Positions 1 to 20,039 of a stretch of 43,755 nucleotides of DNA are shown piece after piece. The position numbers and the translations under genes are program-made. The notes beneath the pieces were generated by a model. The model made no database searches. It saw only the letters and a program-made list of their open reading frames with translations, and was not told where the DNA came from. This DNA comes from a virus, in UHGV virus genome UHGV-0008389. One strand, written 5' to 3'. Position 1 is the stretch's first letter; every line of letters begins with the position of its first letter.

Positions 1-90
1 TCACTCTGCCAGATGGCGCAATGCCATCTGGTATCACTTAAAGGTATTAAAAACAACTTTTTGTCTTTTTACCTTCCCGTTTCGCTCAAG
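1..90. other. Bacterial chromosomal flank (B' side of attB-lambda) with a hairpin at about 8-30
   Basis: Reverse complement reads CTTGAGCGAAACGGGAAGGTAAAAAGACAA directly 3' of the core, matching the attB-lambda B' arm as recalled; inverted repeat CCAGATGGC...GCCATCTGG. Confidence 0.6.
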
Positions 91-105
91 TTAGTATAAA
101 AAAGC
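91..105. other. attR: attR core (15-bp lambda common core O at a P-O-B' junction)
   Basis: Sequence TTAGTATAAAAAAGC is the reverse complement of the lambda core GCTTTTTTATACTAA, with P-arm sequence on one side and B'-type sequence on the other. Confidence 0.8.
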
Positions 106-245
106 TGAACGTGAAACATTAAAAACCATTAATATCAATGTGTTGCAATATCTTTAGTCTAAAAAATAGACTGCATAATGCTACAAAACACAACATATCC
201 AGTCACTATGAATCAACTACTTAGATAGCATTAGTGACCTGTAAC
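106..245. promoter_or_regulatory. Lambda attP P arm (Int arm-type, IHF and Xis binding region)
   Basis: Reverse complement of 181-250 reads GCTCTGTTACAGGTCACTAATGCTATCTAAGTAGTTGATTCATAGTGACTGGATATGTTGTGTTTT, near-identical to the lambda P arm as recalled. Confidence 0.7.
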
Positions 246-251
246 AGAGCA

Positions 252-292
252 TTAGCGCAAGGTGATTTTTTGTCTTCTTGCGCTAATTTTTT
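252..292 (+). terminator. sib: sib/tI-like hairpin with T-tract (int retroregulation element)
   Basis: Stem TTAGCGCAAG / CTTGCGCTAA followed by TTTTTTG; matches the lambda sequence next to the P arm as recalled and is oriented in the int-transcript direction. Confidence 0.6.
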
Positions 293-622
293 GTCAACGC
301 ACTGGGTTAGTTGAATTTACAACCATGCTCAGTATCTCGATAAACGCAGAGAAATGATGCAGTGGTGGGCGGATTGGCTTGATGAAAAAGTGGCATAGCG
401 CCACCTACATCCCTGGGAAATCATCAAACTAACCTGCACGCGCATCGTTGATGATGCACCCATCCCATTTTTTTGATAGGATTAACACGAGAACAGAAAG
501 AATTATATCTAATTGTTTTTAAAGCGGAAATTTTCATACCATCTTTTCCATTACCGTTTTTATATAAATGTAATGAAGTATAGCTTTAAATGATTTAACA
601 TCAGGATATTATATAATCCCTA

Positions 623-1822
623 ATGGTCGTGAGCGTTTTTATGTTTGACTTGACGTTTATTATCTTTATTTTATCTTCCATCCCTGTATTTTTTGTTTTT
701 TGGATTGCCGGAAGGTTTAAGAATGAATTAGTTGCAGACTCTTCTTTTGGGTTGCGAGGTGATGACAATTTATCTTGCCTCAGGGGGTTGGCGGCTGTCA
801 TGGTCGCCCTTCACCATTCAGTATATATGTTCAATTATCTTTATCATGATAAATGGAGTATATTTTTGAATGATGGATTTACGGCGAAGTCAAGCAACAA
901 TAGTTTATTGGCTATTGCATATTTTGGCTCCATTCCAGTCATGATATTCTTTATGATTACAGGGTTTCTCTTCTTTAGAAAAATAATAAACAAACCAATA
1001 AACAATGCTGCAATATTTTTGTCGGCGCGAGTTAAGAGACTAATTCCAATGTATGCATTCATGGTGCTTTGCGTTGTTTGTGTTTCTGAATTAATTCGAC
1101 CCAACGATAGCATTGGGATTCACAACATTATTGTTGAAGTTGGCCGATATTTTACGTTTGGTATAATTGACCCTAATGGCCTTACACCTTCTATTCATGG
1201 ATCTTTAATCGTTGGCGGGGTTATCTGGACTCTTGCATATGAGTGGGGTTTTTATATAATTTTACCATATATCTCTATGTTCGTAAAATCAATAAGAGAT
1301 GCATGTTTTTCGGTAATAATTATGCTTTTCTCGGTATTAATTGCTTACCGCCAAGGGCTTATCAGTGAAATGTTTGCCACTCTTCTCTTTTGCTTTATTG
1401 GTGGCTTTGTTGCAGCGCTAGCTTCTGGTTACCTAAAGAACAACGCTATCAAACAAGCCAATAGCGTAATGATGACAATTGTGTACCTTTTATCGCTTAT
1501 TGCTGTTGCATACTGGCAGGACTTTAACATTTACAATGTTTACATAGTGATTCCGCTATTTTTGTTTTTTTTAAGTGCGTGTACTGGCTCCAAAGCTTTT
1601 CAAATTATAAACACCAAGTTCTTCAAGGTGGCGGGTTCTGTAAGTTACAGCATTTATTTGATGCATGGCTTAAGCATGGTAATGACCTTTAATTTCATTT
1701 CAAGCTCATTAAACTATACTGAGTTTGCAGCAATATCTTTATCAATTTGTGCAATGATAAGTTGCTTAACTTACTTATACATTGAAAAACCCGCAATGAA
1801 AAAACAGTTTAAAAACAATTAG
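623..1822 (+). CDS. Integral-membrane acyltransferase (acyltransferase-3 family, OafA/Oac-like O-antigen acetylase); lysogenic-conversion moron
   Basis: 399 aa, multiple hydrophobic segments, N-terminal LRGLAAVMVALHHS motif typical of acyltransferase-3; strongly AT-rich; lies between attR and the tail-fibre genes on the opposite strand. Start may be the second ATG at 641. Confidence 0.75.
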   Translation: MVVSVFMFDLTFIIFILSSIPVFFVFWIAGRFKNELVADSSFGLRGDDNLSCLRGLAAVMVALHHSVYMFNYLYHDKWSIFLNDGFTAKSSNNSLLAIAYFGSIPVMIFFMITGFLFFRKIINKPINNAAIFLSARVKRLIPMYAFMVLCVVCVSELIRPNDSIGIHNIIVEVGRYFTFGIIDPNGLTPSIHGSLIVGGVIWTLAYEWGFYIILPYISMFVKSIRDACFSVIIMLFSVLIAYRQGLISEMFATLLFCFIGGFVAALASGYLKNNAIKQANSVMMTIVYLLSLIAVAYWQDFNIYNVYIVIPLFLFFLSACTGSKAFQIINTKFFKVAGSVSYSIYLMHGLSMVMTFNFISSSLNYTEFAAISLSICAMISCLTYLYIEKPAMKKQFKNN

Positions 1823-1865: not shown

Positions 1866-2297
1866 TTAAGCTGGCTTAATAGGCCATTCTATATCGGGAG
1901 CCTTGGTAACATTAATAGCTTCCAATTCATCAAGATAATCCAGCCATGCACCATACTGATATTTTTCATCATTACGGAGCCGACCCATAGCCGCTTTTCC
2001 AGGCCATTGCTTGCTGTTCATGTTAGAGTTGGCCTGTTCAATAAGAATCTGCCTCTTGCGTTCTGCTGCTGCTACCTGCTCATCATGAGTTAGTGCTGGT
2101 AGTTCCCCCCATTCCGGATAACCATCTTTTCCAGCGATGCGGACCTTCCCAGTTGGCGGTTCCTTTGTATATTCTGTAAATATATCTTCGTCACATTCAA
2201 CACCATCAGTAGGCCAGCAATTTCCAGAAATATAATCTTCTTTCATTGATGTTGGATAGAAAGCGTTATTTATTGCACTGTACACATATTTTTTCAT
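1866..2297 (-). CDS. tfa: Tail fibre assembly protein (Tfa)
   Basis: 143 aa; C-terminus APDIEWPIKPA resembles the conserved Tfa C-terminus (lambda Tfa ...APDIEWPAVPV as recalled); immediately downstream of the tail-fibre gene. Confidence 0.8.
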   Translation of the reverse strand: MKKYVYSAINNAFYPTSMKEDYISGNCWPTDGVECDEDIFTEYTKEPPTGKVRIAGKDGYPEWGELPALTHDEQVAAAERKRQILIEQANSNMNSKQWPGKAAMGRLRNDEKYQYGAWLDYLDELEAINVTKAPDIEWPIKPA

Positions 2298-2298
2298 T

Positions 2299-3054
2299 TT
2301 ATTTACCTATAGCTATCCATCGACAATAAGTTGTATTGCTACCTGATGGCTGGGAACCCATTAAGCTAAAACCAAGACCGGTACTAACGGGTGTAGCAGC
2401 AAAAGAAGGAATTGAATTTACTGAAGATTCCGTATTATCATACGACACAACAATTTGCACGGTTGAGTAGTTGGTAAATGCAATGGGGAAATTTATAAAA
2501 GTGGGAGATCCAATCGCTCCTGCCACTGAAATACCACGTTGAAAGATAGTTCCATCAGGGTAACGACACCAGCCATTTCCACTTGTAAAGCTAGACATGT
2601 CAGGAATTTGATTGGTGCCGGTCCCTACATTTCTTTTAGCCGCTTCTCCTAAACCAAGATATGAAAAAGCATCTTTCCACCCGGCACCATTGCTGTTTGG
2701 ATCAGATAGATTTCCTTCTGTTGTGTTAATGAATATTCTTTCCCCATCGTTCGAGATGAGCATCGCCCCTGACGGATATCCAGAAATCTCCGAAGCAAAT
2801 TCAGAATCAAAAGTATTCAGCGCCCCGCTGCTCGACCATCTACCCAGAGCAGAAAGTTCGTATAAAATTTGGTTCATATCCTGGCCTTTTGGCGGCAAAC
2901 CGCCAGCAGATTTCAGGATCATTGTTATTGGAGGAAACCCCAGTTCATACGATGCTGAGTTATCTCCTGCAGGAGTGGTTGGCAATATTACCCCTCTCTG
3001 TCCATTAACTCCAAATGGCTTAGGTTGTTTTTTAGGTGAGTCAGAACGATTCAT
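2299..3054 (-). CDS. Tail fibre protein
   Basis: 251 aa, Gly/Ser/Thr-rich; position between the baseplate gene and tfa. Confidence 0.65.
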   Translation of the reverse strand: MNRSDSPKKQPKPFGVNGQRGVILPTTPAGDNSASYELGFPPITMILKSAGGLPPKGQDMNQILYELSALGRWSSSGALNTFDSEFASEISGYPSGAMLISNDGERIFINTTEGNLSDPNSNGAGWKDAFSYLGLGEAAKRNVGTGTNQIPDMSSFTSGNGWCRYPDGTIFQRGISVAGAIGSPTFINFPIAFTNYSTVQIVVSYDNTESSVNSIPSFAATPVSTGLGFSLMGSQPSGSNTTYCRWIAIGK

Positions 3055-3056
3055 GC

Positions 3057-3695
3057 TTAATTCCTATAAAATGTGCCATCATTAAACGGATAGGCATCAG
3101 ATGCAAAACCAAAATAATGGCTAATGATTTTACGTATATTTACCAGAACACCACTCGGAACGGGCATCACCTCATAATTCGTGAGAATAGATTCTTCGTA
3201 TGGCGCAAGCTCAAATTCAAACGTTATTCCTATTGTCATATCTCGATAATTTACGCAATATGCTCTCCCTCTTTGATAAAAAAGTATTTTTAGAAATTTA
3301 TTTATATCTGTAATGGTGGCTATGCTTATGTTGGCAAATGCCTTGCAAAAAATCAATGTTCTGTAAGCGTCATCCCCGAGCCTGACACTTGTTGTTTCCT
3401 GCACTCCACCATAAAAAGGAGAATCATTAAATGGTGAAGGATAATCAGTGCTTCCATCGTCAGCCTCACTAAATCCAAATGAGTCACTGTCAATTGGAGC
3501 GACGATGTATCTGCTTATACCTACTATTTTCCCCCACATATCAAGGCCAAAAGATTCACACGTTGTCAAATCCCATACCTTTTTGATGAATTCATCTGTG
3601 AAGTCATCTAGGCTTACCGCCTGATTAAAAGTGTCAATGACAGATAATAGTTTTTTGCTTGCCGAGTATTGGGTAAGAATTGTGTCTTCCCACAT
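3057..3695 (-). CDS. Baseplate/tail protein (Mu gp48 / YmfQ-like, tentative DUF2313)
   Basis: 212 aa; synteny with the J-like baseplate gene upstream and tail fibre downstream. Confidence 0.55.
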   Translation of the reverse strand: MWEDTILTQYSASKKLLSVIDTFNQAVSLDDFTDEFIKKVWDLTTCESFGLDMWGKIVGISRYIVAPIDSDSFGFSEADDGSTDYPSPFNDSPFYGGVQETTSVRLGDDAYRTLIFCKAFANISIATITDINKFLKILFYQRGRAYCVNYRDMTIGITFEFELAPYEESILTNYEVMPVPSGVLVNIRKIISHYFGFASDAYPFNDGTFYRN

Positions 3696-3706
3696 GCTGC
3701 TCCCCC

Positions 3707-4936
3707 CTACGATAATGTAACAGTGATATCTGATTCCTGAATGGTTGGAACCTGGTCTATGCCCATAGTCACAGCGGGTCCGTATAGTGAACCGTCTATG
3801 GAAATTTCAAGAGACAAAATTCCAACTGTATCAGGAGATATTGAAATAACAGGGGCATAGTATTTACCAGCATTTATCGTAGAACCAATTCGTGCCTTTC
3901 CAATACCCTCATACCCTCCATTGAACACGGTGACAACCATTTCCTTTACTTGTTTAGTAATATCACTTGGGGGATTTAGTGAAGAATCGATATTTACCTT
4001 AAAGTAAACCCGCGTAGGTGATGCCTTTTGCCATTGCATTACGTAAGATGGATATGGCGGCATGTAATTAACGTTATCGTAAACAGTGAACGTTGTATCA
4101 CCATTCATATTGGCGCCGGGGTTATAAGTATTGAATATTGACTCAGCAACATCAGTATCAGCCCCGCCATAAACACAAATATAAACAGAATGCGCAAGAA
4201 TCGGGAAATTCGTTGTTCCTTTATTTACTGTTTCTGCAGTTCTGTTTGACCATACGTAAGCATCAAGCACACCATCTGTCGCAAGTAACGCAGCTAATGT
4301 AGACGCATCCTGATTTCTGCTGTTTCTGGCAACTGATTGTCTCCGGCGAGTTTCAAAGGCGATCCGTGATTCAACATCAACACCAACGACCCCAGGGCTG
4401 ATATTATTTACAGCATCCCACCCGGAAACGGCTCGATAAATCTGATTCAGGGAGCCCGCTGCACACGGAATTGGTCCGGTTGTTGTGTTGACAAACTGCA
4501 CATCAACAGAGCCTGATGAGGGTATTACGGCATTGTCAATTGACTGATATATATACCCGCTCGTATCCACAGCGGTACTCCCTGCTGGTATTGTTGTTCC
4601 AACCTGACCAATGCATGTTGCCGTAACAACTGTCCCCTGAGCAGCGATCCGTTCCATAAAGTAAATCCGGCCAATCCCGTCCTGGAATCTGCCAGTTGAA
4701 AAGTCAGGGTTAATTTGATTAAACAAACAAAGAAGCTTGTCGTATTCCTGAGCGATAATTTCAGTATCAGACTGTGCGATCTGCCCTTGCGGTGAACTCA
4801 GTGACTGACTTGCACCACCACCAAGAGCCGTTGACATGTCTGTAAGTCTTCCCGCCAGCACATCCGCTATGTCGGGAACTGAAAGACCGTTTTCAGTGAT
4901 GGTTACATCAGGAACAGCCGTATTTAATATCGTCAT
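3707..4936 (-). CDS. Baseplate J-like protein (Mu gp47-like)
   Basis: 409 aa; size and position in a Mu-like baseplate cluster. Confidence 0.6.
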   Translation of the reverse strand: MTILNTAVPDVTITENGLSVPDIADVLAGRLTDMSTALGGGASQSLSSPQGQIAQSDTEIIAQEYDKLLCLFNQINPDFSTGRFQDGIGRIYFMERIAAQGTVVTATCIGQVGTTIPAGSTAVDTSGYIYQSIDNAVIPSSGSVDVQFVNTTTGPIPCAAGSLNQIYRAVSGWDAVNNISPGVVGVDVESRIAFETRRRQSVARNSRNQDASTLAALLATDGVLDAYVWSNRTAETVNKGTTNFPILAHSVYICVYGGADTDVAESIFNTYNPGANMNGDTTFTVYDNVNYMPPYPSYVMQWQKASPTRVYFKVNIDSSLNPPSDITKQVKEMVVTVFNGGYEGIGKARIGSTINAGKYYAPVISISPDTVGILSLEISIDGSLYGPAVTMGIDQVPTIQESDITVTLS

Positions 4937-5292
4937 AAGGTGGCCTGTGCAATATTACCATTGATATCTGTAACGCGGATTGTGCCGCGAGTTGTGCGTG
5001 TATTCTTGTCAAAGAAAACTGATGCCAGAGCATCCTCAACGACAGGTAATTTGAGTGCTTCAGCCTGCATTTTCTGAGCAATAAAACCAGGAGATGGTCG
5101 CCTGCCAAGAACTTCTGCCTTCCATGGAATCCCAAGCGTATTATCGTAATAACACTCTCCAGAAAACACCAGGCACGCACTGGCGACATCCTGAGCAACA
5201 GAATATGATTCTTCTGCGATCGCCAGATTGCCATTTCCGTCAAGCGTCAAGTCCCACGTAGAAGTGTCCAGTTGCATAGTTCTGTATGTCAT
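4933..5292 (-). CDS. Baseplate protein (Mu gp46 / GP46-like)
   Basis: 119 aa; translationally coupled between the V-like and J-like genes. Confidence 0.5.
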   Translation of the reverse strand: MTYRTMQLDTSTWDLTLDGNGNLAIAEESYSVAQDVASACLVFSGECYYDNTLGIPWKAEVLGRRPSPGFIAQKMQAEALKLPVVEDALASVFFDKNTRTTRGTIRVTDINGNIAQATL

Positions 5293-5981
5293 GTCGGTTT
5301 ATCCGTTGCATTGGAATTTATTGTTGACCCACCACTTTGTACTCCTGAAACAGAATGTTTGTGATTGTTATAGTTGTCCCTTAAATTTTTAACAGTAGAT
5401 GACTGTGAACTTGCGTTATCCTGAATATCGCCGCTAACTTTAAGTAAAGGTGTATTCATGTTGACTCCACCAGGAGCATCAATATTTAACGATGAACATT
5501 TAATATTTAGTGGATTAGGCGTGGTTATATTTATTGCACCGTCAGCGAATTCAATGAATTGAGTAGGTGAAATGTTTAATACCCCACCAAGATAAATCGC
5601 ATCCGATTTACTGTGTCGTCTTTTGCTTCCAGGTACTGATTCTTTACGATTTTTTCTTACCAGTGATGTGTCTTTGTCGCATACCGCAATCAGACCAATA
5701 TCACCCGCCACAGGGTCCATAATTACAGCACTGTTGCCTCTCTGCAACCGCCATACAGGAATATCATATAAAACCGAGTTGGAAATCATTTTTCCTGTGC
5801 GGTCTGTTCTGGTCAGCAAAGGAAGAGCATCAACAACTAAATCTGGTGCCTCACCCCTGACTTCCTGAACTTTTGCTAACTCAATGAAGAAATATCCAGA
5901 CATCAGCATCTCAAAAATATATTCCTGAGATTGAGCCTCACTCACCTGAGCAGGTGTTGGGGTAAATAGTTGCTTATCCAT
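5289..5981 (-). CDS. Baseplate assembly protein V-like (spike)
   Basis: Longest ORF is 5289-6074; the internal Met (MDKQLF...) gives a start abutting the upstream gene. Position and size fit a gpV-like spike. Confidence 0.55.
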   Translation of the reverse strand: MDKQLFTPTPAQVSEAQSQEYIFEMLMSGYFFIELAKVQEVRGEAPDLVVDALPLLTRTDRTGKMISNSVLYDIPVWRLQRGNSAVIMDPVAGDIGLIAVCDKDTSLVRKNRKESVPGSKRRHSKSDAIYLGGVLNISPTQFIEFADGAINITTPNPLNIKCSSLNIDAPGGVNMNTPLLKVSGDIQDNASSQSSTVKNLRDNYNNHKHSVSGVQSGGSTINSNATDKPT

Positions 5982-6963
5982 TATTCTGTTGTGCCTCTGC
6001 TCTTTGTTCTGCTGTTCTGGCGGCAATACATATTGAGTGCCATGAACCATTTGGCATCCATGATGATAATTCATGCTGAACGGAGGTTAACTTATACCTT
6101 CCGCTTGCATGTGGTAGTTCTGTTTTGATATCCACATATCTTCCAATGCAAAGGAGAGATGAATATTGCGTCTGAAACATCAGTCCCCCATTTGAAAATA
6201 CAGGATATCCAACAAGTCCGTATTCTCTGGATATAAACGGAATCACATCGTCTCTGTTTTTTTCTGAAGGCCAGAACTCTACTTTTGCAGGTGGCGTAGC
6301 TGACATCGCCAGTCCATAATCTGAACAGATTCTATAAAGCTGCTCAAAAACACTTCCTTCAAAATGCGGACTTCCTGATGTTGTCATCCCTTTTACATTA
6401 TTAAACACAGCTTCATAACCTGCACTTTCACAAATGGATGAGATGACATCTTCAACACTTTGCGCCCCCTGTGCTGTAAACGGGCTTGCTGGCATGTTCT
6501 GTAAATCAACATTAGAAGAGGCTGTTATCATCAGACTGCTTTCAGGAGCAGAATTCATGTTTGCTATTGATGAAAGCATCGTGCCAGAAAAAACAAGAGA
6601 GTCATCAGCAAATACTTCAACATTTAACTTCTGTCCGTCTCCAACAATACCATCAGCCTTCCCTGATATATCAGCAAGCCTTTCAATTCCTAACCCGTAA
6701 AGGGATATATCAGCCTGAGCGCCTCCCCGACCTGTAACAAAGTTCAGTGATACTGTTGACTTAACATTTCTTATGGAGATTTTATTGTTTCCATTTTTAT
6801 CAAATGCTGATGATTCATTCGTGAAGTCAAACCGAAGACTGTGATTTTTATACAAGCTCGTTTTCCTCGATGTAATACAGCAAGTAACGGCTACCCAAGC
6901 CTTCCCATTGCGGGTCCGATTCCCCATCATTATCAATGAAAATAAGGTCTCCCTTAAATCCAA
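5974..6963 (-). CDS. Baseplate hub / tail protein (Mu gp44-like); 5' end uncertain
   Basis: 329-aa ORF in a Mu-like tail cluster; the annotated start overlaps the upstream ORF by about 115 nt, so the true start is probably downstream (possible TTG near 6855). Confidence 0.45.
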   Translation of the reverse strand: MDLRETLFSLIMMGNRTRNGKAWVAVTCCITSRKTSLYKNHSLRFDFTNESSAFDKNGNNKISIRNVKSTVSLNFVTGRGGAQADISLYGLGIERLADISGKADGIVGDGQKLNVEVFADDSLVFSGTMLSSIANMNSAPESSLMITASSNVDLQNMPASPFTAQGAQSVEDVISSICESAGYEAVFNNVKGMTTSGSPHFEGSVFEQLYRICSDYGLAMSATPPAKVEFWPSEKNRDDVIPFISREYGLVGYPVFSNGGLMFQTQYSSLLCIGRYVDIKTELPHASGRYKLTSVQHELSSWMPNGSWHSICIAARTAEQRAEAQQNNG

Positions 6964-7150
6964 GGTAGGAATATCTTACCATCTTATTCCCATACAGACA
7001 TGGAACGCCCTGCATAATTGGGACTTCATTAACAGTTAAATCCATGTACATAAAACTCTGTCGCTGAACAAGTTTTATATTACATTGCTGACCAGCCAGA
7101 CTTACCGAAATGGACTGAGATTTGCTGGGAAGAACAGATACTGTAATCAT
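6848..7150 (-). CDS. Hypothetical tail protein
   Basis: 100-aa ORF within the tail operon, coupled to the upstream gene. Confidence 0.35.
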   Translation of the reverse strand: MITVSVLPSKSQSISVSLAGQQCNIKLVQRQSFMYMDLTVNEVPIMQGVPCLYGNKMVRYSYLGFKGDLIFIDNDGESDPQWEGLGSRYLLYYIEENELV

Positions 7151-7962
7151 GTACTCGCCTTAACTATATTTTTTGCAATATCTGCCGCTTTTTTTGTTGC
7201 GCTGTTTGTGACTTCGAGTATTGGTTTGGATACCGTATCAAGAGCGCTCTGGAATTCAGTCTTGATTGTGTCGGAGATTTTTCCAGTGATTTCGCCAACA
7301 GATGACTTCAGTGATGACCATGATTTACTTAGCTCATCGACAGTAGATTCCCTGGCTCCGCCATTGGTTATTTGCGGATCAACTCCTACATCTCCCTGTG
7401 ACTTATTGTTATCCGTTGGCTTCTGTTCTGACTGAGATCCAGAGAGGATAACCTCCATTTGCTGAATGACCTCCTGAAAATCAAGATAAACCGTCAGAAG
7501 AGTCACCCCTTTTTGAGAGTTAACTTCGTAATAGTGGTCAACAAGGTCGAAACTCTCCAGAGTTTCCTTTGGCGTTTCAATATCGTATGTTTTTGCTGAT
7601 GACAACATCGTTTTGATTGTGTTCAGCGTGCTGTTCTGGCTTGTGAATGTGAGATCGAAAATATTCGGGATGTTGCCGGAAAAACCAGTAAGACCATTTA
7701 CGATGATTGCGCATCTTATTCTGGCGGGTTCTTTAACTTTGTTGATGGACTGGTATTTCCCTTTCTCCACCGGAGCGTTTGTTATTTGCGCCCTTCCACT
7801 TGGCTGTACGGATGCCATACCACTGAACTCAAGAGCAACCTCGCCAGTTTCCCTGTCACGAATCACATACTGGGGATGCAGAACGCTGTCGATGATCGAA
7901 AGCGGAGAGCCACCACCGATAGCATTGAATATGTCTGCTGTGTTTAAATCGATTATGCTCAT
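7147..7962 (-). CDS. Hypothetical tail/baseplate protein
   Basis: 271 aa; first gene after the minus-strand terminator at 7975-7999, resuming the tail operon. Confidence 0.4.
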   Translation of the reverse strand: MSIIDLNTADIFNAIGGGSPLSIIDSVLHPQYVIRDRETGEVALEFSGMASVQPSGRAQITNAPVEKGKYQSINKVKEPARIRCAIIVNGLTGFSGNIPNIFDLTFTSQNSTLNTIKTMLSSAKTYDIETPKETLESFDLVDHYYEVNSQKGVTLLTVYLDFQEVIQQMEVILSGSQSEQKPTDNNKSQGDVGVDPQITNGGARESTVDELSKSWSSLKSSVGEITGKISDTIKTEFQSALDTVSKPILEVTNSATKKAADIAKNIVKAST

Positions 7963-8012: not shown

Positions 8013-8231
8013 CTAGTTATCAAAAAGTCCGTACGTTTCTTCTTCAGGAGTAAGGGGAAGAATCTCAATTCTATCTATAGATACCTTTTCAATGTACCCA
8101 TGAGGTCTGCTTAAAATTAAAGCTCTCTCATGCCACAGAACTCCAAGAATGTGATACCTTCCAGCATAGCCTTTTACCCTGGCTCTTCCTTTGATTCTTG
8201 GCGGCATAATGCCATATTTTTTCTTTGCCAT
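8013..8231 (-). CDS. Hypothetical small basic protein
   Basis: 72-aa ORF coupled to the upstream gene (ATG overlaps its stop). Confidence 0.4.
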   Translation of the reverse strand: MAKKKYGIMPPRIKGRARVKGYAGRYHILGVLWHERALILSRPHGYIEKVSIDRIEILPLTPEEETYGLFDN

Positions 8232-9007
8232 TATGCAACATTACTCCCATGAATCAGGTGTTGTAGTGCTTTAACACCTTCCGCATTGTAGCGGAATGCT
8301 TCCACCTGTTTGCTGGAATGTGCAGATTTATCCAGGAAGAACTTCCCGTACTGCTCAGTTTTGAGGTTGTTTGCGTTAGCAATGCGACCAATCTTGTTGG
8401 CCGTTACTCCAAGCTGCTCTGCAACCTCCCCTGCTGAGTAGTAATGCTCTTCTATTGCTGGAAGAGGTATTGCATTAAAACCAACGATCGGGTTGATTAT
8501 GTTTGCTGCCGCAGTCTGCTTTGCTTCCGGCGCAAGATTTGGCATCAAATCGAACAGATTGATAACAGCTTCAACCGTCATTTTCAATGTTCGCGCCTGG
8601 CGATACTCAACAAGTCCACTCGACGATTTACCGCTTTTAATGTGCGCTTCCTGCATACTTTCAAGTTTGTCTACAAGTGTTCGGCGAACTGCTTTAGATT
8701 CGCGAGCAGCAACACGAAGCGCCTGCTTGATAGTCATGGAGATAACATCAATGTCAGCCCCGTTTTTCCGACCTACACTTTTTGTGTAGGTCTCGCCCTC
8801 CAATTCATCCTCAATTTTCTCGATGAATTTGTTGTTACGTACTGATGGCTCTCCACATAACTTGCGAGCTTCATTAACCATCATCAGAAGACTTTGACTG
8901 TCAATGGTTTTATCCGTGACAACGGATCCGATGTTTGCTACATTCTTAAAAGTCATTAGGCATTCCTTATGTGGTAGTAAGGGTGTGACATAGGCCGCCA
9001 GCAGCAC
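8231..9007 (-). CDS. Putative antirepressor-like regulatory protein (KilA-C-like C-terminal region, tentative)
   Basis: 258-aa ORF; C-terminal ...AGEVAEQLGVTANKIGRIANANNLKTEQYGKFF resembles KilA-C/ANT-type domains; real start may be the internal Met at about 8956. Confidence 0.4.
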   Translation of the reverse strand: MLLAAYVTPLLPHKECLMTFKNVANIGSVVTDKTIDSQSLLMMVNEARKLCGEPSVRNNKFIEKIEDELEGETYTKSVGRKNGADIDVISMTIKQALRVAARESKAVRRTLVDKLESMQEAHIKSGKSSSGLVEYRQARTLKMTVEAVINLFDLMPNLAPEAKQTAAANIINPIVGFNAIPLPAIEEHYYSAGEVAEQLGVTANKIGRIANANNLKTEQYGKFFLDKSAHSSKQVEAFRYNAEGVKALQHLIHGSNVA

Positions 9008-9021
9008 ACTGGCGGTTTTTT
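8990..9021 (+). terminator. Plus-strand hairpin with T8 between ant and the next gene
   Basis: CCGCCAG cagcaca CTGGCGG followed by TTTTTTTT on the plus strand. Confidence 0.4.
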
Positions 9022-9040
9022 TTCACCGCCAGATGCGTCA

Positions 9041-9955
9041 TTAATACAGATGAACAGAAGGCGGCAATTCTTTATTCTTAAGCCTTATCCATGCGGAAAG
9101 ATTCGTTGGTCCGTCTGGCTCATTAATATCAACATCTCGTGTGTGGTTTATTAAAACGTCTCTCGCCATTCCGATAACATGCGAGAACTCATGACCATAG
9201 TCGTAGCATCTGCCGGAATAGTTCGATTGAATTTGTTTTAATGCCGGATACAGTTCGCGGAATAATGCCTGTGAACGGTTAGCATAATCCCATAGCCATA
9301 CAAGGCTGTTTGCTTCTTTTGCAGAAAGCTCGTTGGTTTTCTTCTCTTGTTTGCCAATGAACTCACCTTCAAGCGGAACGCGAGCAGCAAGTGACAGTGC
9401 TTCGGCAAACTGCTCCTCACTGATTTCTTTGTACGAACATCCAAAATGGGATTTCAGTGACGACCACATGGTGATCATCGCCTTAGCCTGTTTTTCTTTT
9501 GGCAGAGACTGACCGCAACTCATGACGAGTTGTTTAATGGCTTCCTGCTGTTCAGTGGTGATTTTACCCGGCAACGCCTTTTTAGCTTTCGGTGTATTTC
9601 CGTAAGACCCCGTTTTACGAATGGATGGCAAAACTTCAGCTGTCACCCATTTGCGGAATTTGTGCGGGACTGAACCTTTATTGACGGCATCACGGCAGCG
9701 CAGAACCAATGTATACATACCTGATTCGCTCACAATGCTTAAATTCTGCTCACCACCAAGGGTGTAACTTAAAGTTACTCCCTTCTCATCGTTATCAAGT
9801 GCAGTAAGCGCCTTGCGTGAGTTAGTCAGAGTTAAAGCATCACAAACATCTTTTGCTACAAACCACGGCTCACCGCACTTGTTGATGACGCGGATTTCAC
9901 TGTCGCCGAATTTGAAGATGGTGAAATCGTTTTGTGCCTTTGCTATACTTTTCAT
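9041..9955 (-). CDS. ant: Antirepressor Ant (Bro-N domain)
   Basis: 304 aa; N-terminal [30 protein letters not shown] matches the Bro-N motif of P22-type antirepressors; follows an arc-like gene. Confidence 0.8.
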
Positions 9956-10026
9956 GTCAATATTTCCCGATCAGATTTGTTGATGTAGAAGCCTCGCCAG
10001 TTCCCGCTGTCGGGGCTTCGTTATTT

Positions 10027-10188
10027 TTAGAGAGCATTCCGCATTTTCTCCCGGTACTTCAACCACCAAGCAAGTCCCTGAACCAACACTGAGTTTTCTG
10101 ACATCCCCTCTTCCTTAGCGATGCGTTTCACCTCCTCCTTAAAACGGTACGGATACCGAAGAGTTGTCTTCACTTCATTCTTTTCCAT
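10027..10188 (-). CDS. arc: Arc-like ribbon-helix-helix repressor (53 aa)
   Basis: Unlisted small ORF MEKNEVKTTLRYPYRFKEEVKRIAKEEGMSENSVLVQGLAWWLKYREKMRNAL; AAGGAG RBS upstream; same length as P22 Arc with a matching NGRS-NSE-type RHH motif; lies immediately upstream of ant. Confidence 0.6.
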   Translation of the reverse strand: MEKNEVKTTLRYPYRFKEEVKRIAKEEGMSENSVLVQGLAWWLKYREKMRNAL

Positions 10189-10205
10189 TGATCACTCCTT
10201 TTTAC

Positions 10206-10270
10206 GTAATGGCATTATGCCTTGAAAGCAATATGCCATCATTGAATATAAATAGCAATATGCCATCATT
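10206..10270. promoter_or_regulatory. Divergent promoter/operator region of the immI-like module
   Basis: Palindrome GGCATTATGCC (10210-10220) and two direct copies of GCAATATGCCATCATTG (10227-10243, 10254-10270) between divergent arc-like and mnt-like genes. Confidence 0.5.
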
Positions 10271-10290
10271 GTTTTTTTTGAGGTGATGTT

Positions 10291-10611
10291 ATGGCTGAAA
10301 AGCAGGTTAAAGATTACGAAAAGTTTGTTGTGCGTTTCCCTGACGGGATGAGGGACGCGATTGCGGAGAGAGCCAAACGAAACGGGCGCTCTATGAACTC
10401 AGAGATTGTGCAGATACTGGAAGATGCCTTGAATGCAGAAAATACTCTTGGGGAAATAGCAGACAAAATCAACAGCGTCTCGGTTCCGCTAAATGTTGAT
10501 GCGCTAGTTCAACTTCAAGCCCAGGTTATCGCCATGCAAAAAGAAATACAGGAAAAGTTCAGAGAGCAGAACGAAAAGTTGAGAGAACTGCTAAACAAAA
10601 AACCCACCTGA
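10291..10611 (+). CDS. mnt: Mnt-like ribbon-helix-helix repressor
   Basis: 106 aa; FPDGMRDAIAERAKRNGRSMNSEIVQILEDAL matches the P22 Mnt/Arc RHH region (NGRSMNSE...QI); divergent from arc/ant. Confidence 0.7.
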   Translation: MAEKQVKDYEKFVVRFPDGMRDAIAERAKRNGRSMNSEIVQILEDALNAENTLGEIADKINSVSVPLNVDALVQLQAQVIAMQKEIQEKFREQNEKLRELLNKKPT

Positions 10612-10679: not shown

Positions 10680-12494
10680 CTAAGGCATTGCACTGGAAAA
10701 TGCCGCGTTTGTTGACGCCCGGCTAACTTGCTGATTGACACTTCTGGTAAGAGCATCAACTGTTGTCGGGTTACTGTTAACAACTACCGTGCCAATAGTT
10801 GTACTGCTGCTACGGCTGTTGTCAATTTTTGATGTTGTCTGGCTTGGTGTTGAAGCGATGCGTTGCTGCTGCTGATAGTAAGCCAGCGTCTCGTTTTCTT
10901 TTGCATTAAGAGCGGCGCGAATCTTTGGTACATATTCTCGCGTTTCTTTCGGCAGGGTGTTCCAGTATTTGGATGATGGTGAATCAAACCCGGTACTGGA
11001 TATGTATTTTAACTTTTTGTCTACATTGCCCATCCCCCAGTTGTAAGCCATCAGCGCATGGTTAACATTGCCTTTATAGTGCTTTAGCAAATCCCTCATG
11101 AACCTTTCAGCAGCAGCGCGAGATTTCACTTCATCAAGACGCTCATCAATCCCATCCCCGACCTTTAACCCGTACGCTATGGCAGTATCCTTCATGAACT
11201 GATACGGACCAACGGCACCTTTCGGGCTGTAAAGTTTTTTGCCACCGCTCGATTCCACCTCACGAATGGCATCAAGAAGAGAATCCATGCTTACTGGCTT
11301 TACTCCGTCAGGGAGAGGGATATCTGGCTGAATGTTATTGCCATAAATCTCATCACCCCTACGCCCAAAATCGGTATCAAACCCCATGCTGCGCATGGTA
11401 TCTCCAAGTTCACGCTTAGAGTAATCAAACGATCCTTTAGCTGCCCCCTCAATGTTTTCCCTGTCATTGTAGAGATACAAACCATATGCTATTAACCCTG
11501 CTAACCATGGAGGAAGGGCGCCGCCTGTAAGTTTGCTTCCTACATATGCTGCTGCCAATAGCTTCAGAGCCTCTTCCGCACCACCAACTGCCTTTGTGAA
11601 TTGCTGCGTCATATTCCCGGCGTCATTGAAAAAGCCAATGATGTCGCCATGATGTTTCTCAATCCAGGAACCAAAAGCCTTCATCCCGTCAATAACGTCT
11701 GGAGCGAATGCCATGGCTAAATTTTGCTTTAATCGGGAAAACTCTGAATCAAGTTGCCCAAGAGTGGCAGCAACCTTCTCCTGCTCTTTTACCTGCTGTG
11801 CTGTAATACGGGATTTCTTTGTTTCTGAATCGACAAGCTGCTTAAGTTCCCCTGATTTTATTTTAGCGGCATCTGTCGGATCGAACCCTGCGGCAGCCAT
11901 CACCTGCATCAGGTTTTCTTGAGAATGAGTCTTGCCATAGCGAGAAAACTCAGCAAGAGCCTTGTTTGGGTCGCCGAGCTTATTGATATCTATTCCGGTA
12001 CGAGCTCCAAGAATCAGCAAATTTTGTGCAGCGCCAGTAAGCCCTCCCATAACAGTCGGATCGGCAATATTTGCCAAAGCCATTCTGGCATTCCCAGAAG
12101 ATGAAATGAACGAGTCACCGTTAAGACCAGCCTGGCGAAATCCCCGCTGAACACCAAACATCTTATTAACATCAGAGTCGAAAAACTTGGCCTGTTGGCT
12201 GGCCCTCACAATTTCGTTGGCAGTAGATGTAAAAAGTTGCTTAATTCCATACAACCCGGCGCCAATTCCCAAAAATCCAGCGGCTGCTGTTGTCACGTTG
12301 CGGAAAGCTGAAACAGCGGTTTTACCGAACCTCTCCGTTTCCTGCCGCTGTTTTTCAAGTTCCTTTAGCCTTTCCTTCTCAGCCCTGGAAAGATCTTTGT
12401 TTAATTTACTAACTTCATCTTTTACTTTCCGTTTTCCATTCAGGAATTCATCGGCCTTAATTGTGACCTTGTAGGCCAACTCATTGATAATCAT
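10680..12494 (-). CDS. Tail tape measure protein with C-terminal lytic transglycosylase (SLT) domain
   Basis: 604 aa, long helical N-terminal part; C-terminal motifs EVESSGG ... GAVGPYQFM ... AYNWG typical of SLT domains. Confidence 0.8.
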   Translation of the reverse strand: MIINELAYKVTIKADEFLNGKRKVKDEVSKLNKDLSRAEKERLKELEKQRQETERFGKTAVSAFRNVTTAAAGFLGIGAGLYGIKQLFTSTANEIVRASQQAKFFDSDVNKMFGVQRGFRQAGLNGDSFISSSGNARMALANIADPTVMGGLTGAAQNLLILGARTGIDINKLGDPNKALAEFSRYGKTHSQENLMQVMAAAGFDPTDAAKIKSGELKQLVDSETKKSRITAQQVKEQEKVAATLGQLDSEFSRLKQNLAMAFAPDVIDGMKAFGSWIEKHHGDIIGFFNDAGNMTQQFTKAVGGAEEALKLLAAAYVGSKLTGGALPPWLAGLIAYGLYLYNDRENIEGAAKGSFDYSKRELGDTMRSMGFDTDFGRRGDEIYGNNIQPDIPLPDGVKPVSMDSLLDAIREVESSGGKKLYSPKGAVGPYQFMKDTAIAYGLKVGDGIDERLDEVKSRAAAERFMRDLLKHYKGNVNHALMAYNWGMGNVDKKLKYISSTGFDSPSSKYWNTLPKETREYVPKIRAALNAKENETLAYYQQQQRIASTPSQTTSKIDNSRSSSTTIGTVVVNSNPTTVDALTRSVNQQVSRASTNAAFSSAMP

Positions 12495-12709
12495 CGCTGC
12501 TCCTGATGTTTATTCCAGACCCGATTGTTAAATGATTCCACCGAGATAATTTCCAGAAGGTTATACATATCACGAACAGATAACCGTTCCTGCAAATCGG
12601 TATAAGTGGCTTTTCCTGAACAGATAATGGCGTTCATTGATGGTGTGACGTTTACGGGGCGAACGAGTTTTGCCGGAAGAGTCTCCTCCTCCATGAACGG
12701 GTACTTCAC
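12491..12709 (-). CDS. Hypothetical protein (possible tail assembly chaperone)
   Basis: 72-aa ORF immediately upstream of the tape measure gene. Confidence 0.35.
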   Translation of the reverse strand: MKYPFMEEETLPAKLVRPVNVTPSMNAIICSGKATYTDLQERLSVRDMYNLLEIISVESFNNRVWNKHQEQR

Positions 12710-13113
12710 TCTCCGGCGATCGTTAAAAAATCAAAATTGACTTTAAATACCTTATCCATTACCTGACGAATGGTTGATACCTCTTCAAAGTCGACAGGCT
12801 TCACGGTTCGCACCTGTCTGCTGCCTTCGTGTGTAATCACAATTTGCACAGTTGACATCAGGCGATCACGAAGTTTTCTGGCGACTTCCGGCGATGCAGC
12901 AGAAATAACATTCAGACCAAGGGTGGCAAGGCCAGCGCACCCCATGGCAATAACATCAGCAGGAATACCAGAGAATCCCGATTCCCCCATGGAGCGGAAT
13001 AAATCCTGTGCCAGTTCGTCGGCATCCCATGCCGACATCTCTGTGATAATGAACTCCTTCCCATTGTCGCGATTATCGTCTTCCACGATAAAGGGGATTT
13101 CTTTACGTGCCAT
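12706..13113 (-). CDS. Hypothetical protein (possible tail assembly chaperone)
   Basis: 135 aa, acidic; between the tube and tape measure genes. Confidence 0.4.
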   Translation of the reverse strand: MARKEIPFIVEDDNRDNGKEFIITEMSAWDADELAQDLFRSMGESGFSGIPADVIAMGCAGLATLGLNVISAASPEVARKLRDRLMSTVQIVITHEGSRQVRTVKPVDFEEVSTIRQVMDKVFKVNFDFLTIAGE

Positions 13114-13547
13114 CAGATAGTGCTCCGTGTTACAGACTCAAAGTGAAATACTGCCGGGCGTGGTTGCAGTACGCGCCGACCCGGAGGAGTTGGTGTCCAT
13201 GTATAAAGAACCCCGTTCACAAAATTCCACTTCGCGCCGAGAGCCGGAACTGTAAGCACCGCATTACACTGAAACGCTGAAATTGCAGTTCTCTCTGCTG
13301 CATACCAGTCATCAATCAGCGAGCCAGCATTAGATGTGGGCATCAGGTTGATGGTGAACTCTGTCGGGTTAAAGATAAAACCAGCATGGTATTTACCGTC
13401 CGCTGATATCATGTCTTCTTTGTTCTGTAGTGCGCCAGTTTCAAACATGTTATCAGCTGCGTAGTCGTCAACATCAAAACCGCCAGGGTAGTAAGCGGGT
13501 ACGACGATTCGCAGCTTACTGTTTGCCGAGGTAATATCGATAGGCAT
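13113..13547 (-). CDS. Tail tube protein (tentative)
   Basis: 144 aa; immediately downstream of the sheath-like gene. Confidence 0.5.
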   Translation of the reverse strand: MPIDITSANSKLRIVVPAYYPGGFDVDDYAADNMFETGALQNKEDMISADGKYHAGFIFNPTEFTINLMPTSNAGSLIDDWYAAERTAISAFQCNAVLTVPALGAKWNFVNGVLYTWTPTPPGRRVLQPRPAVFHFESVTRSTI

Positions 13548-13558
13548 GATTTATTCCC

Positions 13559-15049
13559 TTATAAAATCGCGGTTGAGGACATTGTGATGGACTGAATAAG
13601 TTGCCCATCGACATAATAAAAAATGACACCTTTCAGGTCGCGCTCAATGCGTGCAGAGCCTGACTGTGTCGGGATGTACAGGAACCAGCCCTGTGAATAC
13701 AGCGTCGATGAGATATCTTTTCCAACTGTGTTATTCACAATTCTGGTTTGCGCATTATCAAGTTTCACGCCACGCTGAATAGCCCCGAAATTGAGAGCCT
13801 GTTCAGCAACATCAATAACAGCAGCAGAAACTGCGCCGTATCCTGTCTCATTGAACGGGTAAGACTGGTTATTGGTGAACAGGTTGGCAAAAGCACTAAC
13901 CAGATTGGCATTAATCCATACCTGATTAATAAAACTGTCCAGCCATACAAACTTGCCAGTAATGGCACCATCAGATGCGTACTGCGCCATTGTTTTGTTC
14001 AGGCTGTATGAGCCGTAGAAGTTGTAACCGTTTGACTTCAGTGCCTGAGCAGTCGCCAGATCGCTGACGTTGGGTGCTAACCCTGAAAATCCACGGAACT
14101 TGAACGAGATACGCCCATTGGTGCGTGCAAAATCCACGGATGCAGCATATGCCAGTGCTGTAACGCTATACAGGTATGTTCCGTACACCGGAAAAATGTT
14201 CTCGTAGCCATTTGCCACAACCACTTTCTGCACAAAGCAATTGGCATTATTGGCTACCGTTCCTGCTGAAGTGGTGTCGTGAACAACATATCCAAATCGG
14301 TTTTTACTGCTGCTTGCCCATGCGCACAATTCTGTTTTCTGGTCATCGGTCAGTTCGACCAGCGAGTTAAACAGGATCCAGTTCTGGTTGACGTTGATGA
14401 TGTTGTTCATCGTGTCTGTCAGCGTTACCGCATCAGAACCCAGTGATACAATCGCTGCGGAATCCTGCGTCAGTAATAACCCGGCAGCCAGAGCGCCAGC
14501 AGAGGCATAAGACACTTCACTCTCTGCGCCAGTAGTGGCAGAGCGAATGATGAATCGGTTAGCGATTGGCAACCATTCAACCACCACCTTGCTTGCACCA
14601 ATTCCAACCTGCAACTTGGAAGCAATGTCACTAAAACTTGTGGCTGTGGACAAATCAATTGATGTGCTAGTAGTCGACTCACCGTCAATGGAAAGGGTGA
14701 TTGTTCCTGCTGGAATTGCTTTCAGTGTTGCCAGGGAAACACCTTTCAGGTTGCCGGACAGAAGATACCCAGCCACTGGTGAAGTAACAATACGATACAT
14801 CAGCAGTTCACCAGGAATAACGGATGAGTTTTCGTATCCGTTAAAATACTGTTGTGCGGCGAGGAATTCTTTCGATTCACTCCCCATCAAAGCTGATACA
14901 TCAGATGAGGAGTAATAAGATTGTACCGCGCCAACCGGGATAAGCTCGTTATCGGTCAACATCAGGCCGTTAGCATCAACCGCAGAACCGGCAGGCGTAA
15001 CGACATTGGGCGTGATATTAAAATCTACAGATAAAGGGATTGTGCTCAT
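13559..15049 (-). CDS. Tail sheath protein (tentative)
   Basis: 496 aa, similar in length to Mu gpL; position upstream of tube and tape measure genes. Confidence 0.55.
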   Translation of the reverse strand: MSTIPLSVDFNITPNVVTPAGSAVDANGLMLTDNELIPVGAVQSYYSSSDVSALMGSESKEFLAAQQYFNGYENSSVIPGELLMYRIVTSPVAGYLLSGNLKGVSLATLKAIPAGTITLSIDGESTTSTSIDLSTATSFSDIASKLQVGIGASKVVVEWLPIANRFIIRSATTGAESEVSYASAGALAAGLLLTQDSAAIVSLGSDAVTLTDTMNNIINVNQNWILFNSLVELTDDQKTELCAWASSSKNRFGYVVHDTTSAGTVANNANCFVQKVVVANGYENIFPVYGTYLYSVTALAYAASVDFARTNGRISFKFRGFSGLAPNVSDLATAQALKSNGYNFYGSYSLNKTMAQYASDGAITGKFVWLDSFINQVWINANLVSAFANLFTNNQSYPFNETGYGAVSAAVIDVAEQALNFGAIQRGVKLDNAQTRIVNNTVGKDISSTLYSQGWFLYIPTQSGSARIERDLKGVIFYYVDGQLIQSITMSSTAIL

Positions 15050-15594
15050 GGGCGGTTATCCACCTGTTCAGTTGAAATTTCTGCTTTGTCGAAATAGTCC
15101 TGCTGGAACGACACTGTGATGTGTGCTTGCAGGGAAAGAGTTAACGTGTAACGCTCCTGCCACTGACTCTCGGCGTTGATCATCGGCGCCTGAATGGCAG
15201 GAGATGAGTAAAGCGGCGCAAGCCGTGCATCAATAGCCTTGATGATGTCGTAGCCATATCCACTGGTGAATGTTGTTTCCAGTGCAATAGCTCTATCTCC
15301 TGCCCCCTGACCATAGATATCTACCTGAATATCAGCCTGGCGAACTTCCGTATATCCCATGGTGCTTGTGTCCGGAGAGCCGGTATCTTGCTTAAGCTCT
15401 CTCGTCGTGGATAGTCTGGTGAATCGCAAAGGGGTCAGGATACAGAACTGATCTTTGGGCATTGGTACACGGTTAGCCTGAGCCTGCAGGCATTTACCAG
15501 CGATAGGTTCTATGTAGCCAGCAAGTACATCGATAATATTATCGACAGTGAAATCATTCATGGGCTTACCTGCAATACAGCAATCAGCCGGCAC
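15046..15594 (-). CDS. Hypothetical virion protein
   Basis: 182-aa ORF in the late operon between head and tail modules. Confidence 0.4.
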   Translation of the reverse strand: MPADCCIAGKPMNDFTVDNIIDVLAGYIEPIAGKCLQAQANRVPMPKDQFCILTPLRFTRLSTTRELKQDTGSPDTSTMGYTEVRQADIQVDIYGQGAGDRAIALETTFTSGYGYDIIKAIDARLAPLYSSPAIQAPMINAESQWQERYTLTLSLQAHITVSFQQDYFDKAEISTEQVDNRP

Positions 15595-15935
15595 CAGTCA
15601 GGCCACAACTCTATTGGCTCAACAACAAGCCATTGTTCCCCGTTAATCACGAAGATATCTCCGCCCTGCTCCAGTTCTCGCTGCACACTGAAGTAATTAC
15701 CATTGACGTAAATCACTTTTGCCAGCCCCTGAATATTCAATCCATCGACGTGTTGCATGTCGCCGCGACTGATTGGCTGTAGTTGAATGGTAACGTTCTG
15801 GTCAGGGAGATAAGACGGAATCGGCTTGCGACCGGGGCCGATAGTTTCACCTGCATACTTTTTCAGGATTGCCGGGATGTTGGGGTTAATGCTTGTGATC
15901 GCGTTATTGGCTATCTGTCGAAGATTCAATTTCAC
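15558..15935 (-). CDS. Hypothetical virion protein
   Basis: 125-aa ORF in the late operon. Confidence 0.4.
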   Translation of the reverse strand: MKLNLRQIANNAITSINPNIPAILKKYAGETIGPGRKPIPSYLPDQNVTIQLQPISRGDMQHVDGLNIQGLAKVIYVNGNYFSVQRELEQGGDIFVINGEQWLVVEPIELWPDWCRLIAVLQVSP

Positions 15936-16470: not shown

Positions 16471-16901
16471 CAGTACCTCCGGTAATACCCATACGGGTAA
16501 TTTGATGGAGAATGCCCGCTTATATACTGGAAGGTGCGAAACGGCGCCGTAGCATTCCAGTAATCAGCCCCGTACTTTGTTTGCATGTACCATGCTGAAT
16601 TTGCTGTTCCCCCTGGCATATCGGCATGAACGCTAACCGAACCCTCTGAAGCACTGTCGATTCTTCCAACCAATCCGGATGGAGACTGCCCATTCGCTCC
16701 TGAATACAAACAGGCGATATGGGCAACCAGCATATTCAGCAGCATTGAGCGTACAGCCAAATCCGACACGCGACTTGAGTCTGTGTTATCGAGATAAATG
16801 GTTGCTTGCGTGAAATACTGCTGAAGAAGTGCGTCGTCGACAGATGAGAATTCAGGATAGCGTAGCTTAAATGCGGAGGGGTCAAATATTACGACGCCCA
16901 T
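16470..16901 (-). CDS. Head-tail connector-like protein (tentative)
   Basis: 143-aa ORF coupled to neighbouring genes. Confidence 0.4.
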
Positions 16902-16913
16902 TTGCTGCTCCCG

Positions 16914-17261: not shown

Positions 17262-17264
17262 GAA

Positions 17265-18305: not shown

Positions 18306-18308
18306 GTA

Positions 18309-18788: not shown

Positions 18789-18791
18789 TTC

Positions 18792-20018: not shown

Positions 20019-20039
20019 GCTTTTACCTTTCGGCAGGCA

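Follow-up and report, generated by a model that had tools for sequence, protein, structure and literature searches.

The DNA analysed here (the window, 43,755 nucleotides in all) opens on a short stretch that had been read, from its letters, as a lambda-type attR joined to a phage with immunity, Q and lysis genes of lambda and with head, tail and recombination genes of other origin. The locus raises two questions, namely whether its first bases are indeed the right end of a prophage inserted at attB-lambda, and what kind of phage has been placed behind that end. We aligned the window start to lambda attP and to E. coli K-12 attB, and the core and the arms matched. The junction is made up of the following elements:

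1-90, minus strand: B' arm, the E. coli chromosome to the right of attB-lambda (ybhB side), identical to K-12 (NC_000913) at 90/90 positions
91-105, minus strand: common core (O), 15 bp, GCTTTTTTATACTAA, including the 7-bp overlap TTTATAC, identical to lambda 27724-27738 at 15/15 positions
106-246, minus strand: P arm, from alignments to lambda and to phage Huey and from a motif search
244-294, plus strand: sib/tI hairpin followed by a T-run, from folding, the inner stems (251-262 and 277-287) being those of lambda

The host-side base after the core is B'-type (CTTGAGCG) and not that of lambda P' (GTTGGCAT), while the bases before the core are P-type (CGTTCA) and not B-type (GAAGCCT). The junction is therefore P-O-B', that is, an attR, lying at the window start as originally predicted, and the exact match of both the B' flank and the core bears out the further claim that the prophage occupies attB-lambda. 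The core is present in a single copy in the window, even when two mismatches are allowed. The junction is read in reverse, the plus strand running from B' through the core and the P arm to sib, and relative to the usual prophage map the whole window is reverse-complemented. Its sequence begins one base past the ybhB stop codon, and the ybhB terminator hairpin (positions 7-33, -19.4 kcal/mol by folding) lies within the B' arm. Compared with phage records, the window start matched lambdoid attP regions with E-values of 1e-94 to 1e-174, which excludes a chance match. As a single piece, window 1-600 occurs in none of 5,426 complete E. coli genomes and in none of 50,697 phage records; this exact right end is therefore known from one contig. 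We conclude that window 1-294 is very probably the attR (P-O-B') of a mosaic lambdoid prophage with a lambda-type Int, inserted at the canonical attB between ybhC and ybhB.

Over positions 87-296 the window aligns to lambda 27742-27534 with 86.7% identity (blastn), and the protein-binding sites expected of a P arm can be placed along it as follows:

106-115, minus strand: core-type site C region, core-binding site 24/25 compared with the annotation of the lambda record
133-145, minus strand: IHF site H2, TATCAATGTGTTG, fitting the WATCAANNNNTTR consensus, with flanks changed relative to lambda
163-177, minus strand: Xis site X2/Fis, X2 matching lambda at 13/15 positions
185-197, minus strand: Xis site X1, identical to lambda
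200-209, minus strand: Int arm site P2, 19/20 compared with the site annotated in the lambda record
211-223, minus strand: IHF site H1, AATCAACTACTTA, identical to lambda
231-241, minus strand: Int arm site P1, 18/20 compared with the site annotated in the lambda record

H1, H2, X1 and X2 are predicted sites, whose definitions we take to be those of the lambda literature. The P1 and P2 decamers, CAGGTCACTAA and CAGTCACTAT, are both intact. The core-proximal part of the arm (106-165) has diverged from lambda and is 97% identical to Huey, which is also the best match among phage records to this form of the arm (97% over 87-456), followed by ev099 (95%) and by PhiR70_1, mEp332 and 434 (~90%). The P arm is best described as a natural variant of the lambda-type P arm. 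Since Huey, an isolated phage, pairs the variant with an Int that is identical to lambda Int at 353 of 356 residues, the variant presumably works there with canonical lambda Int.

The sib/tI-like hairpin, which was also said to have been retained, is present with its stems as in lambda, just distal to P1 and on the strand of the int transcript. Its loop has one T more than that of lambda, and its folding energy is -24.2 kcal/mol versus -24.3 for lambda (z = -4.9; 0 of 200 shuffled sequences folded as well). A simple terminator scan passed over the element because of its interior mismatches, and it was folding that detected the hairpin. The whole window, scanned against Rfam, gave no match to sib, the sole match being a cIII thermoregulator, and no tRNA genes were found in the window.

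By analogy with lambda, excision would involve Int bound to the arm-type site(s) of the P arm and to the core, Xis on X1/X2, Fis on F and a bend introduced by IHF at H2. The attR complex would synapse with attL, and strand exchange inside the overlap would yield attP and attB. In the prophage, sib/tI would lie at the end opposite int, and because of that distance int-xis transcripts induced from pL would be expected to escape RNase III retroregulation. In the circularised state, sib would again lie downstream of int on the same strand, where it would destabilise the N-antiterminated int mRNA and restrain Int synthesis, and would serve as the terminator tI for pI transcripts. That RNase III would cleave the read-through int mRNA is suggested by the identity with lambda sib. 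As long as the element is integrated, the plus-strand hairpin and T-run would also face any read-through from ybhB.

An attR presupposes an opposite end, and this end lies outside the window. The window and contig CANUOM010000001.1 (GCA_948196265.1) are coextensive; the sequence breaks off within an ead/Ea22-like ORF, short of int, xis and attL. A contig that stops within this ORF, with no int, xis or attL, could come from a defective or cryptic remnant in which the attR is real and int, xis, attL or other essential parts have been lost, making excision impossible. We regard such a remnant as unlikely, in view of the content of the window and of a second contig. The genes from terminase to fibre and those for lysis, Q, replication, immunity and recombination are all full-length ORFs with strong family matches, and a contig break in the Ea22-like repeat region would be a common assembly artefact. 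The second contig, L013 (6,662 bp), is an independent metagenome contig from another assembly and is identical to window 40800-43755 at 2,956/2,956 positions. It continues through the Ea22-like and DUF551 genes to an intact Int of 356 aa that matches lambda Int at 352/356 residues. Beyond Int come a lambda P' arm, the core and, on the ybhC side, the B arm of K-12, which together make up the expected attL. L013 thus appears to be the continuation of the prophage although, coming from a different assembly, it need not derive from the same genome, and by way of this overlap we estimate the prophage at ~46.8 kb from core to core.

The same attL contig, which shows the integrated state, bears on the idea that the window is DNA from a phage particle, produced by aberrant excision as a specialised transducing genome of the bio type that carries attR and little host DNA. 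The lambda-derived bio-transducing phage DN1, for which an attR is annotated, does match window 1-296, and the host DNA in the contig amounts to only 90 bases. A bio-type genome would, however, carry ybhB-bioA DNA and lack left-end genes, and no such host DNA is present; moreover, the host flank ends exactly at the ybhB boundary, as it would after computational provirus trimming. We therefore hold a transducing genome to be extremely unlikely and read the window as an integrated prophage.

Beyond sib, the DNA is unrelated to the lambda b region. Two features occupy the interval up to the tail genes:

296-456: conserved lambdoid 'b-region end' sequence, common to Huey, 434 and ev099
623-1822, plus strand: Acyltransferase_3 accessory gene (moron), the last gene before attR (PF01757, 1.4e-22)

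Similarity to the lambda att region of the Huey type stops at position 456, and similarity to a prophage at the dacD site starts at 415. The 36-bp block at 421-456 is common to both sides and marks a mosaic joint. To the right of it, the acyltransferase gene, the fibre assembly gene and the fibre tip are 99.2% identical in nucleotide sequence to the end of the dacD-site prophage of E. coli EH01-18-04-A. The acyltransferase gene has a GC content of 36%, and its product, 25% identical in amino acid sequence to OacB of Sf101, is a candidate O-antigen or surface acetylase.

This joint is the only place at which one could argue for an assembly chimera, in which the end of a lambda-att prophage (1 to ~456) has been joined in silico to an unrelated prophage at the shared block. 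The contig comes from an assembly of unstated method, window 1-600 is contiguous in no complete genome, and the switch from sequence like that of Huey and lambda att on the left to the 99.2% identity with the dacD-site prophage on the right falls exactly at 421-456. On the other hand, lambdoid recombination normally leaves short common blocks where modules meet, and a repeat of 36 bp is probably shorter than the usual final k-mers of assemblers. The independent attL makes a chimera unlikely, since L013, identical to the window over the whole overlap, carries lambda Int and attL at attB-lambda and predicts exactly such an attR. Taken together, we consider a chimera highly improbable, and 421-456 has the appearance of a typical lambdoid recombination joint within one prophage.

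What lies behind the attachment site was then compared with lambda. By blastn, 5,682 of the 43,755 bases align to lambda, in agreement with the view of the genome as strongly mosaic. The features of the lysis, late-control, replication, immunity and early regions are the following:

26510-27727, minus strand: lysis cassette, S and R lambda-like, Rz divergent
26510-26947, minus strand: Rz, 58.6% identical to lambda
26944-27420, minus strand: R, 156/158 aa identical to lambda
27404-27727, minus strand: S, 105/107 aa identical to lambda
28749-29372, minus strand: Q antiterminator of lambda type, adjoining pR'/qut, 205/207 aa identical to lambda Q
29554-34857, minus strand: nin and replication genes, with Pfam matches to RusA, YbcO-like, Roi/KilAC antirepressor, Dam methylase, HNH endonuclease and NinB
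33116-34027, minus strand: DnaC/IstB-like loader in place of P (Pfam)
34012-34857, minus strand: O-like initiator, its match to lambda O limited to the N-terminus (58%)
34892-36294, mixed strands: immunity region, from sequence comparison to lambda
34892-35257, minus strand: cII-like gene, 53% identical to lambda cII
35280-35480, minus strand: cro, 65/66 aa identical to lambda Cro
35507-35523: OR1, one G to A change relative to lambda
35531-35547: OR2, identical to lambda
35554-35570: OR3, identical to lambda
35581-36294, plus strand: cI, 233/237 aa identical to lambda
36410-37414, plus strand: SDH-type Clp-fold serine-protease-like gene, 334 aa (phrog_21683; weak Pfam and NCBIfam hits below cutoff)
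37647-43755, plus strand: pL operon, including ral, cIII, kil and a 218-aa ORF
37647-37687: OL2/OL1, lambda-like, OL1 with one G to A change
38036-38407, plus strand: N-like gene, non-lambda, with weak similarity to lambda N (51% over the last 37 residues)
40577-40635, plus strand: cIII thermoregulator (Rfam)
41030-41710, plus strand: Sak4-like ATPase (Pfam)
41707-42294, plus strand: SSB (domain search)
42318-42614, plus strand: Abc2 (domain search)
43439-43755, plus strand: ead/Ea22-like ORF, cut by the contig end

As can be seen from this list, the description of immunity, Q and lysis as lambda-identical holds in part: cI, Cro, Q, S and R are near-identical to their lambda counterparts without being identical, and Rz and cII are divergent. 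The Q/pR' segment is close to lambda in nucleotides as well (window 28649-29382 versus lambda 44609-43875, 96.6%), as are the ral and cIII-kil segments (97-98%), and NinB is 98.7% identical to lambda in amino acid sequence. By sequence comparison, cI, Cro and the OR and OL operators are of lambda specificity, as is the case for the imm-lambda group. The changes in OR1 and OL1 are the same, one G to A each, both at position 8, and this pair, together with a T3A substitution in the N-terminal arm of cI, might reflect a natural immunity specificity that has shifted slightly. By analogy, the non-lambda late operon should be driven by the lambda-type Q and pR', in keeping with which Q lies upstream of the genes for lysis and virion on the same strand.

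The recombination module had been expected to be non-lambda and is so: exo-bet-gam is replaced by genes for a Sak4-like ATPase, SSB and Abc2 that are of HK620 type. The closest nucleotide matches to this half of the element come from the early regions of HK620, N7 and HK97 (94-96% over 36-42% of window 22001-43755), which have in common with it the nin genes, Roi, RusA, the Sak4-like ATPase, SSB and Abc2. HK620 itself differs in having an IntS-type integrase, a 434/L-like cI and a P22-like podovirus particle. From these similarities, att/(int), cI-cro-OR/OL, Q-pR', S-R, NinB and cIII-kil can be assigned to lambda, and the N, replication, nin and Sak4-SSB-Abc2 genes to cassettes of HK620/HK97 type.

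One gene of the immunity region falls under neither heading. In lambda, rexA-rexB lie between cI and the terminator tIMM; here tIMM (37445-37471) is identical to lambda, and the rex slot in front of it is exactly replaced by the gene for the serine-protease-like protein of 334 aa. The gene was found in this slot in 10 of the 5,426 complete E. coli genomes, and searches of PADLOC, PDB sequences and NCBIfam gave nothing above threshold for it. We put forward, as a tentative and rather doubtful proposal, that it provides an exclusion or defence function co-expressed with the repressor, of a kind absent from PADLOC.

The genes between the acyltransferase gene and the lysis cassette encode the particle. 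They are arranged as follows:

1866-7962, minus strand: tail fibre assembly, gp53-like fibre, DUF2612, baseplate J, wedge, hub and plug genes (Pfam and PHROG), colinear with gp24-gp31 of Edwardsiella phage GF-2 at 43-73% amino acid identity
8231-10611, mixed strands: immI-like island within the tail cluster (P22_AR_C, Bro-N and Arc domains; phrog_1726)
8231-9007, minus strand: antirepressor gene 1 of the island
9041-9955, minus strand: antirepressor gene 2 of the island
10291-10611, plus strand: Arc-family repressor gene of the island
10680-15049, minus strand: lytic tail protein in the tape-measure position (SLT, lytic transglycosylase domain), chaperone, tube and sheath (phrog_2013, 1932, 1964 and 205)
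13559-15049, minus strand: DUF3383 tail sheath (PF11863, 4.4e-106)
15046-24488, minus strand: neck, cement-like minor head, protease/scaffold, head-morphogenesis, capsid, portal and terminase genes (PHROG)
17265-18305, minus strand: major capsid (PHROG)
20892-22427, minus strand: portal (Phage_portal_3)
22427-23953, minus strand: TerL (PHROG)
23901-24488, minus strand: TerS (PHROG)

The original prediction had called the head and tail Mu/SfV-like, and this did not hold, as neither the sheath nor the capsid has significant similarity to Mu, SfV or ST64B. For Mu, the sheath compared with L gave an E-value of 0.48 and the capsid compared with T one of 0.04. In tblastn against the whole SfV genome, matches were confined to the fibre tip and the protein for fibre assembly, and the sheath compared with that of ST64B gave an E-value of 0.63. 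Baseplate J provided the sole weak, family-level match to the Mu/SfV/ST64B set (7e-5). The relative that does emerge is phage GF-2 (NC_026611, Gofduovirus), and the contractile-tail virion module can be assigned to its type on the basis of gene order and protein similarity. Starting at the portal and ending at the tail fibre, the 22 structural genes are colinear with those of GF-2, as is the Arc/Ant island, at 30-82% amino acid identity. The island sits in the same place in both, between the gene in the tape-measure position and the baseplate genes, and the sheaths of the Edwardsiella phages GF-2 and Edno5 match that of the window at 73-75% amino acid identity. No phage record carries a near-identical virion module; at ~96% nucleotide identity and at least 80% coverage, it is found in 11 of the 5,426 complete E. 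coli genomes.

The prophage that occupies the attB-lambda site is thus a new combination of known modules and an instance of ordinary lambdoid mosaicism. Complete E. coli genomes and phage records lack only the combination as such and its exact right end. The element provides a clean example of a long-known principle, that the att/int, immunity, Q and lysis cassettes of lambda are portable to an unrelated particle module, and it indicates that attB-lambda is occupied in nature by contractile-tail phages. It also corrects the earlier reading, the particle genes being of GF-2 type and not those of Mu or SfV. Lambdoid mosaicism, GF-2 as a lambdoid myovirus and a phage with lambda Int and such a class of capsid and sheath were already in the public record, and the element opens no new question.

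Four of the known elements each share a part of this combination. Huey (PQ850609.1) is closest at the attachment site: its attP matches window 87-456 at 97% identity, a stretch that takes in both the variant form of the P arm near the core and the DNA past sib, and on the P' side it is practically lambda (two differences in the aligned stretch). Huey differs in that an annotated tail spike protein gene and a UmuD-like gene adjoin attP, the window diverging past 456. GF-2, like the window, carries a contractile-tail virion module within genes laid out as in lambdoid phages, and has been treated as a lambdoid myovirus (PMC12541379). Myovirus-type lambdoids are not mentioned by Kupczok et al. (2022). 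GF-2 has a host of another genus and no similarity to the window at the nucleotide level; TerS and TerL had no tblastn match in it, and its cI gave only a partial match (63%). By these levels of identity, the element is not a member of the GF-2 genus, Gofduovirus. The virion module itself is found at 96.5% nucleotide identity over 89% of window 400-24500 in the lambdoid prophage at the dacD site of E. coli KCJ3K291 (NZ_CP054407.1), which differs in its dacD-side attachment, in having another fibre tip and another Q, and in lacking the acyltransferase gene. Finally, 'Lambdavirus PDP110P1' (OZ035751.1) has an Int identical to lambda Int at 352/356 residues, and its attP is of lambda type, the P arm being 90% identical to that of the window. 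Its capsid is 70% identical to that of the window in amino acid sequence, whereas its DUF3383-class sheath is only 37% identical and its tail genes are larger. Since PDP110P1 combines lambda Int and attP with a capsid and sheath of this kind, a lambda attachment site linked to such a class of particle is already on record.

The sequence analyzed is the whole of contig CANUOM010000001.1 (GCA_948196265.1). Its first base lies one base past the ybhB stop codon, and this start suggests that a provirus-extraction tool trimmed the host DNA back to the edge of a gene. The other end, at position 43755, falls within an ead/Ea22-like ORF.

A 36-bp block (TCATCAAACTAACCTGCACGCGCATCGTTGATGATG) at positions 421–456 is common to Huey, an Escherichia phage representing those with lambda-type att sites, to a prophage at another E. 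coli attachment site (the dacD site) and to this contig. The partner of similarity changes exactly at this block. We favor reading the block as a recombination joint; a less likely alternative is that an assembly chimera was formed at this point. The final gene ahead of attR, the prophage's right-hand junction at the lambda attachment site, is listed here:

623–1822, plus strand: Acyl_transf_3 gene of low GC content (36%)

It is transcribed in the direction opposite to that of the tail genes. The terminal gene of a dacD-site prophage of E. coli EH01-18-04-A is 99.2% identical to it at the nucleotide level, and the Sf101 O-antigen acetylase OacB shows only 25% identity. The acyltransferase gene is a candidate for an accessory gene that modifies the serotype or receptor.

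Between the TerS and lysis genes and in the nin and early regions, the following features were found:

24516–25040, plus strand (the opposite strand): 174-aa ORF, phrog_5483
25648–26202, minus strand: Rha/ORF11CD3 regulator gene
31264–32378, minus strand: Dam-family N6-adenine methyltransferase and HNH_3 endonuclease, nin region
40577–40635, plus strand: lambda cIII thermoregulator (Rfam, 88.5 bits)

The first two lie together in the TerS-to-lysis-gene interval, and the methyltransferase–endonuclease pair is flanked by NinB and NinE/F-like sequence. The thermoregulator was the only match in an Rfam scan of the window; the 317-bp segment containing it is 96.8% identical to lambda cIII-kil.

In and around the immunity region lie:

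35507–35523: operator OR1
35581–36294: cI
36410–37414, plus strand: SDH-type Clp-fold serine-protease-like ORF, 334 aa, phrog_21683
37445–37471: tIMM, a conserved lambda-type terminator
37671–37687: operator OL1

Between cI and tIMM, the serine-protease-like ORF stands in place of rexA-rexB in a precise swap. Of 5,426 complete E. coli genomes, 10 have the cro-cI-protease order, and a homologue of the ORF is present in only two phage records; a PADLOC search with the ORF gave no match. As for the operators, OR1 and OL1 carry the same G-to-A change at position 8, in the non-consensus half-site, and OL3 has one change. Relative to their lambda counterparts, cI has the substitutions I55V, K71N, Q201H and, within its N-terminal arm, T3A; Cro has V55I. 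These changes may be harmless polymorphism or, alternatively, may reflect subtle co-variation between operators and repressor arm.

Within the tail gene cluster lies a P22 immI-like island (8231–10611), in which an Arc-family repressor gene is transcribed divergently from a pair of antirepressor genes. The island separates the baseplate genes from the gene at the tape-measure position:

10680–12494, minus strand: tape-measure-position protein, 604 aa, with a C-terminal lytic transglycosylase (SLT)-type domain

Since an island is found in the same place in Edwardsiella phage GF-2, whose contractile-tail virion module is colinear with this one, and in the dacD-site prophage of E. coli KCJ3K291, the immI-like island travels with the virion module. 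The tape-measure-position protein and its GF-2 counterpart are only 32% identical; no other tail gene in the module is as divergent.
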